From the NCBI RefSeq assembly GCF_988242995.1, contig NZ_OZ547043.1: a stretch of 64,000 nt of DNA; one strand, written 5' to 3'. The notes below the pieces were generated by a model. The model made no database searches. It saw only the letters and a list, made by a program, of their open reading frames with translations, and was not told where the DNA came from. Shown one piece after another: positions 47,317-53,562 of the stretch (positions within the stretch are counted from its first letter, which is position 1; each line of letters begins with the position of its first letter). A program made the translations under genes and the position numbers.

Positions 47317-47741
47317 ATCCACCTCAATTAAAAATTGACCCTGTGAAAAATATGGTCGTTTTATAGGGTCGTCGTAAAAAAGTGACGACGGAAATAATGC
47401 GCGGCTATTTTAAAAACGAAGGCAAATCATTCGCCAGATAAATAAATCCAGTAAATTTGATTTAGGGCAACAGCGGGTTGCCCCATATAGTCATTTGTCT
47501 GATTGACAGTGTAGTGCAAGCGAAAGATTTAATCCTTTAGGCGTAATAAAAAATAATTTATCATGCTAATTATTTGATTTTGTTGTTTTTGCAGGCTTAT
47601 CAGCAAGAGGGAGTATAACGCGATTATTCGCTCATTTTTCAGACATTTGCCATGCTTAAATGTGATGTCATCACGTATTAGCAAGGCCTTTCCCGTTATA
47701 CTGCCAGCGTAAAGGATAAGTCACATATTTCTGGAGGGGAT

Positions 47742-49400
47742 ATGATTCTTGAGCGCGTTGAAATTGTGGGTTTTCGCGGTATCAACCGTTTGTCGTTGAT
47801 GCTGGAACAAAACAACGTCCTGATTGGGGAGAACGCGTGGGGTAAATCCAGCTTGCTGGACGCCTTAACCTTGCTGCTATCGCCAGAATCAGATCTCTAC
47901 CATTTTGAGCGCGACGATTTCTGGTTCCCGCCGGGAGATATCAACGGTCGGGAACATCATCTGCATATTATTTTGACCTTCCGCGAATCGCTGCCAGGCC
48001 GACATCGGGTTCGCCGTTATCGGCCGTTGGAAGCGTGCTGGACGCCATGCACTGATGGCTATCACCGTATTTTTTATCGTCTGGAAGGGGAGAGTGCGGA
48101 AGACGGCAGCGTGATGACACTGCGCAGTTTTCTCGATAAAGACGGACATCCGATTGATGTTGAGGATATTAACGATCAGGCACGCCATCTGGTGCGTTTA
48201 ATGCCGGTGCTGCGCTTGCGTGATGCCCGTTTTATGCGCCGTATTCGTAACGGCACGGTGCCAAATGTCCCCAATGTGGAAGTCACCGCGCGCCAGCTCG
48301 ATTTCCTCGCCCGTGAGTTGTCCTCACATCCGCAAAATCTCTCTGATGGACAGATTCGTCAGGGACTTTCCGCAATGGTACAGCTGCTTGAGCATTATTT
48401 CTCTGAGCAGGGGGCCGGACAGGCGCGATATCGTTTAATGCGGCGGCGAGCCAGCAATGAGCAACGAAGCTGGCGCTATCTGGATATCATCAACCGGATG
48501 ATTGACCGACCAGGAGGGCGCTCGTATCGGGTTATTTTGCTCGGCCTGTTTGCTACTTTGTTGCAGGCAAAAGGCACATTGCGACTGGATAAAGACGCCC
48601 GTCCATTGTTGCTGATCGAAGATCCAGAAACCCGTTTACACCCCATTATGCTTTCAGTTGCCTGGCATCTGTTGAATCTTCTGCCATTGCAGCGCATTGC
48701 CACCACCAACTCTGGCGAGCTGCTTTCGTTAACGCCGGTAGAACATGTTTGCCGACTGGTACGTGAGTCCTCGCGCGTTGCCGCCTGGCGTCTGGGGCCG
48801 AGTGGTTTGAGTACCGAAGACAGCCGACGCATCTCTTTCCACATTCGTTTTAATCGTCCGTCATCGCTGTTTGCACGCTGCTGGCTGCTGGTGGAAGGCG
48901 AAACGGAAACCTGGGTTATCAATGAACTGGCGCGTCAGTGCGGACATCATTTTGATGCCGAAGGGATCAAGGTCATTGAGTTTGCCCAGTCCGGGCTAAA
49001 GCCACTGGTTAAATTTGCCCGGCGAATGGGGATTGAATGGCATGTACTGGTCGATGGCGATGAGGCAGGGAAGAAATATGCCGCTACGGTACGCAGCCTG
49101 TTGAATAACGATCGGGAAGCCGAACGAGAACATTTAACGGCGTTACCGGCGCTGGATATGGAACATTTTATGTATCGCCAGGGATTTTCCGATGTGTTCC
49201 ACCGCGTGGCGCAAATCCCGGAAAATGTACCGATGAATCTGCGCAAAATTATCTCGAAAGCGATCCATCGCTCTTCCAAACCCGATCTTGCCATTGAAGT
49301 GGCAATGGAGGCAGGACGTCGTGGTGTGGATTCCGTACCGACGCTGCTGAAAAAAATGTTCTCACGCGTGCTGTGGCTGGCGCGCGGTCGCGCGGATTAA
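47742..49400 (+). CDS. ybjD: OLD-family nuclease YbjD (N-terminal ABC/AAA ATPase, C-terminal TOPRIM)
   Basis: 552-aa ORF; Walker A GENAWGKSSLLDA near residue 30; acidic C-terminal region consistent with TOPRIM (…LLVEGETETWV…, …HVLVDGDEAGKKY…); SD GGAGGGG upstream. Confidence 0.92.
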   Translation: MILERVEIVGFRGINRLSLMLEQNNVLIGENAWGKSSLLDALTLLLSPESDLYHFERDDFWFPPGDINGREHHLHIILTFRESLPGRHRVRRYRPLEACWTPCTDGYHRIFYRLEGESAEDGSVMTLRSFLDKDGHPIDVEDINDQARHLVRLMPVLRLRDARFMRRIRNGTVPNVPNVEVTARQLDFLARELSSHPQNLSDGQIRQGLSAMVQLLEHYFSEQGAGQARYRLMRRRASNEQRSWRYLDIINRMIDRPGGRSYRVILLGLFATLLQAKGTLRLDKDARPLLLIEDPETRLHPIMLSVAWHLLNLLPLQRIATTNSGELLSLTPVEHVCRLVRESSRVAAWRLGPSGLSTEDSRRISFHIRFNRPSSLFARCWLLVEGETETWVINELARQCGHHFDAEGIKVIEFAQSGLKPLVKFARRMGIEWHVLVDGDEAGKKYAATVRSLLNNDREAEREHLTALPALDMEHFMYRQGFSDVFHRVAQIPENVPMNLRKIISKAIHRSSKPDLAIEVAMEAGRRGVDSVPTLLKKMFSRVLWLARGRAD

Positions 49401-50389
49401 CCGCGAAACATCGTGGCCATTTGTGGCTGAATAGCGTCGAGCATCTCATAGCGCCGACGGTATTCAGCCCGTTTTTTACTGGCGATTTCGGCAATCTCTT
49501 TTCGTGCTATCTGTGCCGGAAGGCGGTAATGGCGTTCAGCATCACATACGCCGCCTACCGACTCCCAGAACGCGTTGTAATCAGCATGGATCTTGCCTTC
49601 TTTATCGCGATAACGCAGGCTGCGGTAAATATGTGTTTCATTGCTGACGGCAATGATCTGCTCTACCTGCAAACGTTGGGCAAACAGACAGGCCGCTTCC
49701 ATCACAAGGCGTTTGGGAAATAGCCCGTGGCAGGCTTTCGTCGCATTCTGGATTTCCTGATGTGGAATTTCCCATTTTGCGCCTTGCAGTCCGCCAATAA
49801 ACATTGTTCTTTCCCCCTGATATTCACACAGGGTAAACGTGATCTCTGCCAGAGGAATACCTTCGCTGTTGCGGAACAGGATTGTGCTGTCACCTTCTTT
49901 ATCCATTGAGATCATCATGGTCAGCTCAAGTGTGAACTGCTCGCCGTTTTTGCCTTCCAGCTTCGCCAGTTGCAGCCCGGGGGTATTCAAATATAAGCTG
50001 AATTCTTCCGCCGACATACATCCGCGGAGTAACGCATAATGGTAACGTAACGCCTCCAGCAATTGCTTACGGCTAAGATTCGCCGCAAGGTAAGGGCGAT
50101 GCAGACGCACAGGCAGTCGCGGCTGGCGCGTTAACAACACATTGAGATTAGGCCAGTGGGAAAGTTCGTTCATCCACTCAACGCTTAAACGCGGCATAAT
50201 CAACGAGCGCAGCAAAAATTTCTGGCGAAAACTACGGCGATGCCAGAATTTACCCGGCCGACACTGTCCACGTGCCAGACTAAGAAAAAGTGACAGGCTG
50301 CTGAGAGATTCAGATGGCGTAAAGGTCCGTTCAGTTAGCTGCGACATATTCATGAAATCAATGGTTATACATGACGTCGATTTCACCAT
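49397..50389 (-). CDS. ybjX: VirK-like DUF535 protein YbjX
   Basis: 330-aa ORF; convergent with ybjD with 4-bp overlap; synteny with K-12. Confidence 0.88.
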   Translation of the reverse strand: MVKSTSCITIDFMNMSQLTERTFTPSESLSSLSLFLSLARGQCRPGKFWHRRSFRQKFLLRSLIMPRLSVEWMNELSHWPNLNVLLTRQPRLPVRLHRPYLAANLSRKQLLEALRYHYALLRGCMSAEEFSLYLNTPGLQLAKLEGKNGEQFTLELTMMISMDKEGDSTILFRNSEGIPLAEITFTLCEYQGERTMFIGGLQGAKWEIPHQEIQNATKACHGLFPKRLVMEAACLFAQRLQVEQIIAVSNETHIYRSLRYRDKEGKIHADYNAFWESVGGVCDAERHYRLPAQIARKEIAEIASKKRAEYRRRYEMLDAIQPQMATMFRG

Positions 50390-50444
50390 TGCGTATCTTA
50401 ACCAAACATCAATAGTGTGATTACTAACGTAAATTTTAGGGTTT

Positions 50445-50461
50445 TGTTGATATTTCGTTGA
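50445..50461. promoter_or_regulatory. PhoP-box-like direct repeat in ybjX-macA divergent intergenic region
   Basis: TGTTGA-tattt-CGTTGA resembles the PhoP consensus (T/G)GTTTA-N5-(T/G)GTTTA; PhoP control of macAB and ybjX is established. Confidence 0.35.
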
Positions 50462-50503
50462 AGTTAATGACCCGGATTGGCATATGGAGTATTCAGAATA
50501 TTT

Positions 50504-51619
50504 ATGAAAAAGCGGAAAACCGTGAAGAAGCGTTACGTTATTGCGCTGGTGATAGTCATTGCCGGGCTGATTACGTTATGGAGAATTCTTAACGCACCCG
50601 TGCCGACTTATCAGACGCTGATTGTGCGCCCCGGTGATTTACAGCAAAGCGTGCTGGCGACCGGAAAGCTGGACGCGCTGCGTAAGGTTGATGTGGGCGC
50701 GCAGGTCAGCGGTCAGTTGAAAACGCTGTCGGTGGCGATTGGCGATAAAGTAAAAAAAGACCAGCTTTTAGGGGTTATTGATCCTGAACAGGCTGAAAAC
50801 CAGATTAAGGAGGTGGAAGCAACGCTGATGGAGCTACGCGCGCAGCGGCAGCAGGCGGAAGCGGAGCTGAAACTGGCGCGGGTGACGTATTCCCGTCAGC
50901 AACGTCTTGCACAAACGCAAGCGGTTTCACAGCAGGATCTCGATACCGCCGCGACGGAGATGGCTGTGAAACAGGCGCAAATTGGCACCATTGACGCGCA
51001 AATCAAGCGCAATCAGGCCTCACTCGATACGGCTAAAACCAATCTCGATTACACCCGCATCGTTGCCCCGATGGCCGGGGAAGTCACGCAAATAACCACT
51101 CTGCAAGGCCAGACGGTGATTGCCGCACAACAAGCACCGAACATTCTGACGCTGGCAGATATGAGCACCATGCTGGTAAAAGCGCAGGTTTCTGAAGCGG
51201 ATGTAATCCACCTGAAGCCGGGGCAAAAAGCCTGGTTTACGGTGCTTGGCGATCCACTGACGCGCTACGAGGGGCAAATCAAGGATGTGCTACCGACGCC
51301 GGAAAAGGTTAACGACGCTATTTTCTATTACGCCCGTTTTGAAGTACCCAACCCCAATGGTTTGCTGCGGCTGGATATGACCGCGCAAGTGCATATTCAG
51401 CTCACCGATGTGAAAAATGTGCTGACGATCCCTCTGTCGGCGTTAGGCGATCCGGTTGGCGATAATCGTTATAAAGTCAAATTGTTGCGTAATGGTGAAA
51501 CACGCGAGCGTGAAGTGACGATTGGCGCACGTAACGATACCGATGTTGAGATTGTCAAAGGGCTGGAAGCGGGCGATGAAGTGGTGATTGGTGAGGCCAA
51601 ACCAGGAGCTGCACAATGA
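50504..51619 (+). CDS. macA: macrolide efflux membrane fusion protein MacA
   Basis: Trimmed to [21 protein letters not shown]..., 371 aa. Confidence 0.94.
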
Positions 51620-53562
51620 CGCCCTTGCTCGAATTAAAGGATATTCGTCGCAGCTATCCTGCCGGTGATGAGCAGGTTGAGGTGCTGAAGGGCATCACCC
51701 TCGATATTTATGCTGGTGAGATGGTGGCGATTGTCGGCGCTTCGGGTTCCGGTAAATCGACCCTGATGAATATTCTCGGCTGCCTGGATAAGGCCACCAG
51801 CGGCACCTATCGCGTAGCCGGTCAGGATGTTGCCACTCTGGACGCCGATGCGCTGGCGCAACTGCGCCGCGAGCATTTCGGCTTTATTTTCCAGCGTTAC
51901 CATTTGCTTTCGCATTTAACCGCCGAGCAGAACGTTGAAGTACCCGCCGTCTATGCCGGTCTTGAGCGGAAACAGCGGCTGCTTCGCGCCCAGGAGTTGC
52001 TGCAACGACTGGGGCTGGAAGACCGTACAGAGTATTATCCGGCACAGCTTTCGGGTGGTCAGCAACAGCGCGTCAGCATCGCGCGGGCATTGATGAACGG
52101 CGGTCAGGTAATTCTTGCCGATGAACCGACCGGCGCACTGGACAGCCATTCTGGCGAAGAGGTGATGGCGATCCTGCATCAGCTGCGCGATCGCGGGCAT
52201 ACGGTGATTATCGTTACCCACGATCCGCAGGTCGCTGCTCAGGCCGAGCGGGTGATCGAAATTCGCGACGGCGAAATTGTGCGCAATCCTCCCGCCGTTG
52301 AAAAAGTGAATGTTGCTGGCGGGACGGAACCTGTTGTCAACACGGCCTCTGGCTGGCGGCAATTTGTCAGCGGTTTTAACGAAGCGCTGACGATGGCATG
52401 GAGGGCGCTGGCAGCGAATAAAATGCGTACTTTACTGACCATGCTGGGGATTATTATCGGTATTGCGTCGGTGGTTTCAATTGTCGTGGTGGGCGACGCC
52501 GCCAAACAAATGGTGCTGGCGGATATTCGTTCTATTGGTACGAATACTATTGATGTCTATCCCGGGAAAGATTTTGGCGATGACGATCCGCAATATCAGC
52601 AGGCGCTGAAGTACGATGACTTAATCGCCATCCAAAAACAACCGTGGGTCGCCTCAGCCACACCTGCCGTCTCGCAAAACCTGCGCCTGCGTTATAACAA
52701 TGTTGATGTGGCTGCCAGTGCCAATGGCGTGAGCGGCGATTATTTTAATGTCTATGGCATGACCTTCAGTGAAGGGAACACCTTTAATCAGGAGCAGCTG
52801 AACGGTCGTGCGCAGGTGGTGGTTCTCGACAGTAATACTCGCCGCCAGCTTTTCCCCCATAAAGCAGATGTGGTTGGCGAGGTGATTCTGGTCGGCAATA
52901 TGCCCGCCAGAGTCATTGGTGTGGCGGAAGAAAAACAGTCGATGTTTGGTAGCAGTAAAGTGCTGCGTGTCTGGCTACCTTACAGCACGATGTCCGGGCG
53001 AGTTATGGGCCAGTCGTGGCTCAACTCCATAACTGTCAGGGTGAAAGAAGGATTTGACAGCGCCGAGGCGGAACAGCAACTCACGCGTTTACTTTCACTG
53101 CGCCACGGTAAGAAGGATTTCTTTACCTGGAACATGGACGGCGTCTTGAAAACCGTTGAAAAGACCACACGTACTTTACAACTGTTTCTGACGCTGGTGG
53201 CGGTGATTTCGCTGGTGGTGGGCGGTATTGGTGTAATGAATATTATGCTGGTGTCAGTGACCGAGCGGACGCGGGAAATTGGCATTCGCATGGCTGTAGG
53301 TGCGCGAGCAAGCGATGTTTTGCAACAGTTTCTGATCGAAGCCGTACTGGTTTGCCTGGTCGGTGGCGCGTTGGGAATAACACTGTCACTGTTAATTGCT
53401 TTCACCTTACAGCTTTTCTTACCCGGCTGGGAGATTGGTTTTTCACCGTTGGCGCTGCTGCTGGCGTTTCTCTGCTCGACGGTCACCGGGATTTTATTTG
53501 GCTGGTTACCCGCACGAAATGCGGCACGACTGGATCCAGTAGATGCTCTGGCACGAGAGTAA
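51616..53562 (+). CDS. macB: macrolide export ABC transporter ATPase/permease MacB
   Basis: 648-aa ORF; Walker [10 protein letters not shown], signature LSGGQQQR, C-terminal FtsX-like permease; ATGA overlap with macA. Confidence 0.96.

Follow-up and report, generated by a model that had tools for sequence, protein, structure and literature searches.

ybjD, a stand-alone OLD-family ATPase-Toprim gene of Escherichia coli with affinity to Gabija GajA and the inheritance of a core gene

Introduction

The 64,000-nucleotide stretch of contig NZ_OZ547043.1 (RefSeq assembly GCF_988242995.1) analysed here, hereafter the window, carries the convergent genes ybjD and ybjX at positions 47,742 to 50,389. 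ybjD is a stand-alone gene of the OLD (overcoming lysogenisation defect) family, with a predicted activity that combines an ABC-type ATPase and a two-metal Toprim nuclease in one protein. E. coli K-12 still has genes that await characterisation, and ybjD is one of them. As part of the core genome in E. coli, Salmonella, Klebsiella and related bacteria, it is probably the OLD-family gene that has been sequenced most often. The observation of ybjD and the reading of its architecture are already published, and that work has partly answered whether the gene acts in phage defence. What we add is its inheritance as a core gene, its affinity to the Gabija nuclease GajA, the loss of ATPase residues in the YbjD clade, and the reading of the protein as a probable domesticated nuclease.

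Results

The ybjD-ybjX locus

The pair and its junction are laid out as follows.

47742..49400, + strand: ybjD (oldB) coding sequence, 552 residues from an ATG start in the open-reading-frame list; OLD-family ATPase-Toprim protein
49397..50389, - strand: ybjX (VirK/DUF535), 330 residues as the longest open reading frame
49397..49400, no strand: TTAA, the overlapping stops of convergent ybjD and ybjX, in the junction ...GAT TAA CCG...

RefSeq names the two products 'ATP-dependent endonuclease' and 'VirK/YbjX family protein', and starts ybjX 36 nt further in, at a Met 12 codons downstream (49397..50353, 318 residues), so that the boundary at 50389 given in an earlier note on this DNA is the start of the longest reading frame. 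Most of the ybjX product (residues 48-325) matches Pfam DUF535/VirK (PF04393, E 3e-102). The TAA of ybjD occupies 49398-49400 and that of ybjX is the reverse complement of 49397-49399. Because TTAA holds both stops, the convergent 4-bp overlap that the earlier note had described, and that the junction sequence shows to be real, consists of stop codons only.

In the neighbourhood, for which we used the RefSeq annotation of the E. coli 4FA chromosome, ybjD is flanked upstream by divergent aqpZ, with macA-macB past ybjX, in agreement with the earlier placement of the gene beside the macAB/ybjX region. There is no defence island, and the G+C content of ybjD (52-55%) is similar to that of its surroundings. 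The window copy of ybjD is 100% identical to that of E. coli NY1601, from chicken faeces, and 98.2% identical to that of the 4FA chromosome, so the window derives from another strain than 4FA.

Domain architecture and fold

YbjD divides into two regions.

47742..48872, + strand: N-terminal ABC-type ATPase domain, residues 1-377 (Pfam), with a helical insertion at about 177-277 in the structural model
48873..49397, + strand: Toprim nuclease domain and C-terminal helical region, residues 378-552 (PF20469 and model)

Pfam assigns DUF2813 to residues 1-375 (E 2e-160) and OLD-like_TOPRIM (PF20469) to residues 376-440 (E 3.8e-16), and the N-terminus also matches AAA_15 and SMC_N. These matches and a conserved P-loop confirm the Walker A ATPase domain that had been read from the letters alone, while PF20469, the conserved acidic residues and the fold do the same for the C-terminal Toprim domain; the homology to OLD proteins on which the earlier architectural reading depended is thus found by profile search. 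An NCBIfam search returned only N-terminal P-loop matches, far under the family cut-offs. An AlphaFold model, computed from an alignment of 63 relatives, has a mean predicted local distance difference test score (pLDDT) of 88.8 and a predicted template modelling score of 0.87, with the strands and helices of residues 380-547 above 90 in pLDDT. Its best Foldseek matches in the PDB are GajA (E 3.5e-19), the Thermus scotoductus OLD protein (Ts OLD, 6p74; E 5e-16) and the OLD protein of retron Eco8 (E 5e-13). The family profile searched against the PDB places Ts OLD (6p74) first at 2e-21 and GajA at 1e-19, so that the two are about equidistant.

YbjD groups with GajA but has no GajB

PADLOC, one of the checks suggested in the earlier note, gave its strongest match to YbjD with the GajA model PDLC00094 (267 bits, E 7e-80), against 84 bits for the Old model. 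Of the relatives that the note had named, GajA is upheld by this score and by the tree described below, and the likeness to P2 Old proves misleading, at 84 bits and only 18% identity in the trimmed alignment.

One viral-database contig (L095) encodes a GajA of 570 residues, which shares 31% identity with YbjD from end to end (E 1e-80) and matches DUF2813 at 206 bits and PDLC00094 at 757 bits. The next gene, which overlaps it by 4 bp, encodes a UvrD-type helicase (GajB, 882 bits). As a DUF2813 member with so high a PDLC00094 score, the L095 GajA explains why YbjD matches the GajA model. In four more relatives, all plasmid-borne, an 'AAA family ATPase' is likewise paired with an 'ATP-dependent helicase'.

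Positions 135-11066 of L095 as a whole form a compact defence island, in which a HEPN_Swt1 and DUF499 protein (PADLOC HmaC, 1115 bits) precedes GajA-GajB and an MmeI-like N6-methyltransferase fusion lies at the end on the opposite strand.

We built a neighbour-joining (distance) tree of 29 proteins, five of them GajB-linked, rooted on P2 Old. In this tree every stand-alone protein falls into one clade with the L095 GajA (100% support), and the remaining GajB-linked proteins make up a basal grade. Within that clade the stand-alone proteins are monophyletic (98-99%) with the L095 GajA as their sister, and a gammaproteobacterial clade (100%) has an internal order that follows taxonomy. When the domains are analysed separately, the clade of L095 plus stand-alone proteins obtains 79% support from the ATPase half and 94% from the Toprim half.

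We checked the window, 80 Enterobacterales loci and about 25 distant loci for a helicase partner. With three GajB queries against 114 sequences, tblastn found no GajB-like helicase in the 64-kb window or in the roughly 100 stand-alone loci and matched only the five Gabija control loci, which, together with the annotated neighbourhood, bears out the earlier statement that ybjD has no helicase or other partner gene. Around the distant stand-alone relatives, Pfam annotation shows no uniform context but a variety of mostly metabolic genes. The position of the stand-alone clade next to the L095 GajA, combined with the absence of a helicase at the stand-alone loci, suggests that a GajA-type protein deprived of GajB gave rise to the YbjD clade. 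ybjD has the context by which Class 1 OLD genes are recognised (isolated, with no helicase, retron or AriA partner), yet by sequence it does not group with the Class 1 archetypes P2 Old and Ts OLD, which argues that 'Class 1' would describe its context and not its ancestry. Of the features of a Gabija system, it has the GajA-type protein and lacks both an adjacent GajB and the canonical ATPase residues.

The nuclease site is invariant

Conservation was counted in an alignment of 63 stand-alone relatives that are 28-54% identical.

48894..48908, + strand: E385-G-E387-T-E389, proposed metal A and B ligands; E385, G386, E387 and E389 invariant (63/63)
49053..49061, + strand: Toprim DxD motif D438-G-D440; D440 invariant, D438 in 62/63; aligned with GajA D432/D434
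49155..49163, + strand: acidic pair D472-M-E474, proposed metal B site; E474 invariant, D472 in 62/63
49278..49283, + strand: K513-P514, candidate catalytic lysine; invariant (63/63)

No other part of the protein is as well conserved as these Toprim residues. The glutamates of E385-E389 align with E379/E383 of GajA (residue list in PMC10822852). Judged by motif order, D472/E474 are the probable counterpart of GajA D511/D513 and P2 Old D541/E543, and K513 may be equivalent to the catalytic Lys of OLD proteins. Across seven genera, the rate of nonsynonymous substitution (dN, Nei-Gojobori) in the Toprim domain is about half that in the ATPase domain. The invariance of the Toprim residues indicates that selection keeps the nuclease, though the published over-expression phenotype does not need the Toprim domain, and argues that the native function of YbjD would have to use this site.

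Hydrolysis residues of the ATPase site are replaced

The ATPase motifs present a different picture.

47826..47849, + strand: Walker A (P-loop) G29-E-N-A-W-G-K35-S36; G29, E30, N31 and G34 at least 94% conserved
48606..48644, + strand: Walker B and D-loop, L289-LLIEDPETRLHP-301, from column counts and pairwise alignments to the GajA of Bacillus cereus and that of L095
48708..48710, + strand: H-loop position, with N323 instead of the conserved His (alignments)

At the position of K35, 56 of the stand-alone relatives have K, six have R and one has S. In canonical ABC ATPases the residue after the Walker B acid is the position of the catalytic Glu. By comparison with Ts OLD E276/H283 and P2 Old D299/H306 (PMC7049728), E293 is the Walker B acid of YbjD and H300 its D-loop His; the residue that follows E293 is D294, where GajA and P2 Old carry Glu. 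All five GajB-linked GajA proteins, B. cereus GajA and P2 Old keep both the Glu after Walker B and the H-loop His. The H-loop position is N, Q or Y in 22 of the 23 stand-alone clade members in the tree, and the E294 equivalent, the H323 equivalent or both are replaced in 22 of these 23 and in 62 of the 63 members of the conservation alignment (A1).

Asn in place of the H-loop His has been noted in some Class 1 homologues by Schiltz et al. 2020 (PMC7049728), and in P2 Old mutations of the H-loop, D-loop and Walker motifs abolish killing (PMC7049728). GajA is inhibited by ATP binding (as cited in PMC13261556). From the replacements at D294 and N323 we infer that the ATPase domain of YbjD acts as a nucleotide gate and not as a motor, and that proteins of this clade probably bind ATP but hydrolyse it poorly. 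Such a gate fits both the ATP-binding inhibition of GajA and the published behaviour of the K35A mutant of YbjD.

ybjD is inherited as a core gene

ybjD is present at full length in 5424 of 5426 complete E. coli genomes with 96-100% nucleotide identity, nearly always as a single copy (median one, maximum two). Across 80 Enterobacterales species, sampled at one locus per species, the order hcp-lysO-(aqpZ)-ybjD-(ybjX)-macA-macB is kept from Escherichia to Serratia, Hafnia and Pectobacterium, and also in Proteus. The identity of YbjD tracks that of Hcp, LysO, MacA and MacB (Pearson 0.91-0.94), with similar means of about 82-84%. Compared with seven genera, the ratio of dN to the rate of synonymous substitution (dS) is 0.015-0.05 for ybjD (Nei-Gojobori, with dS saturated), at or below that of most neighbouring genes. 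In more distant genera the identity of YbjD drops stepwise, to 56% in Proteus, 45% in Aeromonas and 43% in Vibrio, and orthologues reach Vibrionales and Aeromonadales. Vertical inheritance under purifying selection, as known for the archaeal OLD-family ATPase Cran1, is therefore found here in the congruence of the tree and in the dN/dS values.

The phage genome collection contains no real ybjD homologue, its sole match being an unannotated 2-kb record. Among 2.9 million IMG/VR viral contigs, two match ybjD: L095, described above, and L094, which is an aqpZ-ybjD-ybjX-macA segment of the E. coli chromosome. A plasmid origin of ybjD was considered and rejected, the 'plasmid' matches being mislabelled chromosomes or chromids. 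The patchy, mobile distribution and the defence-island location expected of defence systems are not seen for ybjD. Taken together, universal presence, synteny, low dN/dS and absence from phages and plasmids identify ybjD as a vertically inherited core gene rather than a mobile defence module, and this strictly inherited status argues against an ordinary mobile anti-phage system.

The PHROG family phrog_4747 matches YbjD residues 233-538 at 391 bits despite the near-absence of the gene from phage collections; both this match and L094 look like host DNA misassigned to prophages.

Published experiments on YbjD

In a search for OLD-family members, Schiltz et al. 2019 took YbjD (b0876) as the seed sequence and assigned it to the stand-alone Class 1 (PMC6755086). 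A micropublication of May 2026 names ybjD oldB, a Class 1 OLD, and reports that 68 BASEL phages plate on the Keio ybjD knockout as they do on its parent (PMC13261556). Over-expression of YbjD from pBAD gave weak phenotypes in the same study, with fewer plaques of Bas18 and Bas20 and smaller plaques of Bas64-68. Toprim point mutants and a full Toprim deletion retain the phenotype and deletion of the ATPase domain abolishes it; K35A also retains it and is more toxic; and YbjD, unlike P2 Old, is not lethal to recBC(ts) cells (all PMC13261556).

The earlier note had held that an anti-phage role of this gene was not established. That role has in fact been tested, with a null result for the knockout and weak, Toprim-independent effects on over-expression, so the statement stands only insofar as the answer is partial. 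Literature searches on b0876, DUF2813 and orphan GajA returned nothing further, and they found no biochemistry of YbjD. A translesion-synthesis paper was set aside as evidence on ybjD, its mentions of the gene being the aqpZ-ybjD intergenic insertion site.

Neighbouring genes and expression signals

Three putative expression signals lie around ybjD.

47697..47702, + strand: TATACT, probable -10 element of ybjD's own promoter, 40 nt before the ATG (21-species alignment)
47733..47737, + strand: GGAGG, Shine-Dalgarno sequence, read from the sequence and conserved in the upstream alignment
49456..49483, + strand: terminator-like hairpin with T-run, 56 nt past the ybjD stop and within ybjX (consensus scan)

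The spacer between aqpZ and ybjD is 419 bp long and AT-rich, and TATACT and the Shine-Dalgarno sequence are its sole blocks conserved across Enterobacteriaceae (21 species). Footprinting of the same 21 species revealed no conserved -35 element or operator of the LexA, CRP or PhoP type upstream of ybjD, a sigma-70 consensus scan of this region gave no match, and no structured RNA or retron non-coding RNA near ybjD matched Rfam at the gathering threshold. A perfect 13-bp palindrome, GTGATGTCATCAC, lies at 47662-47674 in the window, about 70 nt before the ybjD start; it occurs in this form in the E. coli window only, with a one-base variant in E. albertii, and is absent from the other aligned genera, so it is probably not a conserved operator.

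An E. coli RNA-seq study lists ybjD-ybjX as a convergent 'excludon' (PMC12288877), and the hairpin past the ybjD stop is consistent with such an arrangement. ybjX itself is absent from 23 of the 81 Enterobacterales loci that retain ybjD. Its product is 44-75% identical where YbjD is 80-91% identical, with dN of 0.15-0.50 against 0.055-0.12, up to five-fold higher. Of the 58 species with ybjX, 45 nonetheless preserve the 4-bp stop-stop overlap (YTAR). Loss in 23 of 81 species and much faster evolution rule out ybjX as an obligate partner.

In three Succinivibrionaceae (L098 1428-7641, L105 2013-8644, L106 2439-8641) a DUF2813 gene follows macA-macB-OEP on the same strand. The junction between the OEP (outer membrane efflux protein) gene and the DUF2813 gene is a 4-bp overlap in two of them and a 13-nt gap in the third, and a gene for a HAD-type hydrolase lies downstream. 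These DUF2813 proteins are 55-99% identical to one another and about 34% identical to YbjD, and the accompanying MacB is 53% identical to that of E. coli. The gene order differs, with ybjD upstream of macAB in Enterobacterales (window 47742-53562) and the DUF2813 gene downstream of it in Succinivibrionaceae. The adjacency to macAB could reflect ancestral synteny or a functional tie, and a functional tie is unlikely.

Other relatives of the family

Several DUF2813/OLD relatives (P0149, P0162, P0163 on L092/L093, P0165 and P0175) are 1000-1867 residues long, with large insertions in the ATPase domain that are reminiscent of SMC/Rad50 coiled coils and with C-terminal extensions that have no Pfam match; one of these long relatives is encoded near a Pol I gene. 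A fourth and more divergent Succinivibrionaceae DUF2813 protein (P0397, L107 7001-10597) is preceded by a Lon-like protease and followed by a 549-residue TIR-domain protein, a context that hints at defence, unlike that of other stand-alone members. In a metagenomic contig (L086 162-4882), the gene of the stand-alone protein P0184 has a PhdYeFM-PIN toxin-antitoxin pair on one side and a family B DNA polymerase gene on the other, and all of them share one strand.

Discussion

A proposed helicase-less GajA lineage kept as a core gene

We assign a probability of roughly 0.55 to the reading that ybjD represents a helicase-less GajA lineage fixed as a core gene, and that its product is an ATP-gated, host-domesticated nuclease. 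A GajA-type ancestor would have lost its GajB helicase, and the orphan would then have become established in the core genome of Enterobacterales as a single-copy gene passed on vertically. Lacking one or both hydrolysis residues, the ATPase domain would bind ATP and serve as a nucleotide sensor or gate instead of a motor. ATP-bound YbjD would be kept inactive; without bound ATP it would engage a nucleic acid target, which is most likely DNA by analogy with GajA, and cut it at the invariant Toprim site. Transcription from the gene's own promoter would be low and probably constitutive. The native task would then be surveillance or processing of host nucleic acid, or a last-resort response to nucleotide depletion, either being likelier than an arms-race role against phages, and the published over-expression phenotypes would probably report binding by the ATPase domain only. 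YbjD may also work in trans with a housekeeping helicase of the UvrD/Rep type.

Several points weigh against this reading. The substrate may be RNA or tRNA instead of DNA; P2 Old and AriB cut tRNA. Binding without hydrolysis is deduced from the identity of residues alone, and a change of Glu to Asp may retain some activity. The descent from GajA depends on a neighbour-joining tree of 29 proteins with a long P2 Old root branch and five GajB-linked members, in which only the ATPase half separates the L095 GajA from the stand-alone proteins, the Toprim half giving this split 1% support. The only experimental phenotypes, on Bas18/Bas20 plaquing and Bas64-68 plaque size, are anti-phage ones. ybjD is non-essential, the aqpZ-ybjD intergenic region serves as a neutral insertion site, and we know of no housekeeping phenotype of the gene.

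The most serious competitor, though we consider it unlikely, is that YbjD alone constitutes a true anti-phage system of Class 1 OLD type. It would sense infection and either abort it or degrade the nucleic acid of the phage, and its target phages would fall outside the BASEL panel or its action would need native regulation. The strong PADLOC matches to GajA speak for it, as does the reduction of Bas18/Bas20 plaquing and Bas64-68 plaque size at an inducer level that is not toxic (PMC13261556), and the toxicity of K35A resembles that of a de-repressed abortive-infection effector; according to a review, the characterised bacterial OLD members all act in defence (PMC10568477). Yet the knockout is unchanged with 68 phages, and the phenotype depends neither on the Toprim domain nor on the Walker A Lys. 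E. coli carries the gene universally and its synteny extends over the order, its dN/dS shows no sign of an arms race, its neighbours are an aquaporin, a lysine exporter and an efflux pump with no defence island, and it is absent from phages and true plasmids.

That YbjD instead works with MacAB, YbjX or both in a PhoP/envelope-stress module appears quite improbable to us. ybjD adjoins macAB throughout Enterobacterales, stands directly upstream of macA on the same strand in Klebsiella and Proteus, which lack ybjX, and finds an echo in the three Succinivibrionaceae genes placed directly after macA-macB-OEP; it rises together with the PhoPQ-regulated arn genes after cathelicidin (PMC6737244), and the stop-stop overlap with ybjX is widely kept (45 of 58 species). 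However, macAB is missing from the vicinity of the orthologues in Aeromonas, Vibrio, Photobacterium and Salinivibrio and of six other stand-alone relatives, ybjD has its own conserved promoter, no biochemical rationale joins a nuclease to an efflux pump, and related gammaproteobacterial orders could simply have inherited the adjacency from a common ancestor. For YbjX, the fact that 23 of 81 species lost its gene yet kept ybjD, and its several times faster evolution, count in the same direction. Least credible of all is a functionless Gabija relic, kept by chance or by the overlap with ybjX. The loss of the partner helicase and of canonical ATPase residues, and a knockout without phenotype, are what such a relic would look like, but 5424 of 5426 genomes keep an undamaged reading frame, dN/dS stays at 0.015-0.05 over divergences at which dS is saturated, the nuclease residues are invariant across relatives as little as 28-54% identical, and ybjD is retained where ybjX is absent. 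The measured purifying selection effectively refutes this explanation.

If ybjD is indeed a domesticated defence nuclease, it would show clearly, in a bacterium, how an immune effector can be taken over for the needs of its host, and it would warn against equating an OLD or GajA homologue that has an over-expression phenotype with a defence system. For experiments, a cheap and direct handle lies in the contrast between the invariant nuclease site and the loss, specific to this clade, of the H-loop His and of the Glu after Walker B.

Comparison with known systems

PARIS AriA/AriB (Class 4) and the OLD protein of retron Eco8 (Class 3) share with YbjD the logic of an ABC ATPase and a Toprim domain, as weaker PADLOC and structural matches. 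They differ in being split over two genes or in working with a retron reverse transcriptase and non-coding RNA, neither of which is found near ybjD.

The Class 1 OLD proteins of P2, Thermus scotoductus and Vibrio cholerae resemble YbjD as stand-alone two-domain genes, and YbjD has been put in Class 1 by context (PMC6755086, PMC13261556). P2 Old needs its Walker A Lys and its Toprim domain (PMC7049728), whereas the YbjD phenotype needs neither (PMC13261556); P2 Old is also phage-borne, and the YbjD family is essentially absent from phages.

Gabija GajA, for example that of B. cereus VD045, shares with YbjD the ABC ATPase and Toprim domains, a similar length and the same acidic Toprim residues. 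GajA proteins are the best structural matches of YbjD, and the published K35A behaviour fits their inhibition by ATP binding. GajA is, however, an island or plasmid gene accompanied by GajB, and ybjD a chromosomal core gene without it; as a Class 2 OLD, GajA has the Glu and the H-loop His intact, and YbjD has one or both replaced. In contrast to Gabija, YbjD gave no defence at native expression (PMC13261556).

Cran1, an OLD-family ATPase of Sulfolobales (PMC12796447), is like YbjD in being vertically inherited with the species tree and in having no evident defence role. The two also appear alike in that the ATPase and not the nuclease matters for the phenotype, and in that over-expression is harmful. 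Compared by description only, they differ in that Cran1 is archaeal and essential, belongs to clade U11 and has a role in the cell cycle, and ybjD is bacterial and non-essential, with no cell-cycle effect on record. We tentatively extend the comparison, as a somewhat doubtful proposal, to the YbjD clade as a whole: its members could be GajB-less, hydrolysis-poor, nucleotide-sensing domesticated nucleases with a role in genome maintenance or stress, for which Cran1 would be the counterpart and the anti-phage phenotype a side effect of over-expression.

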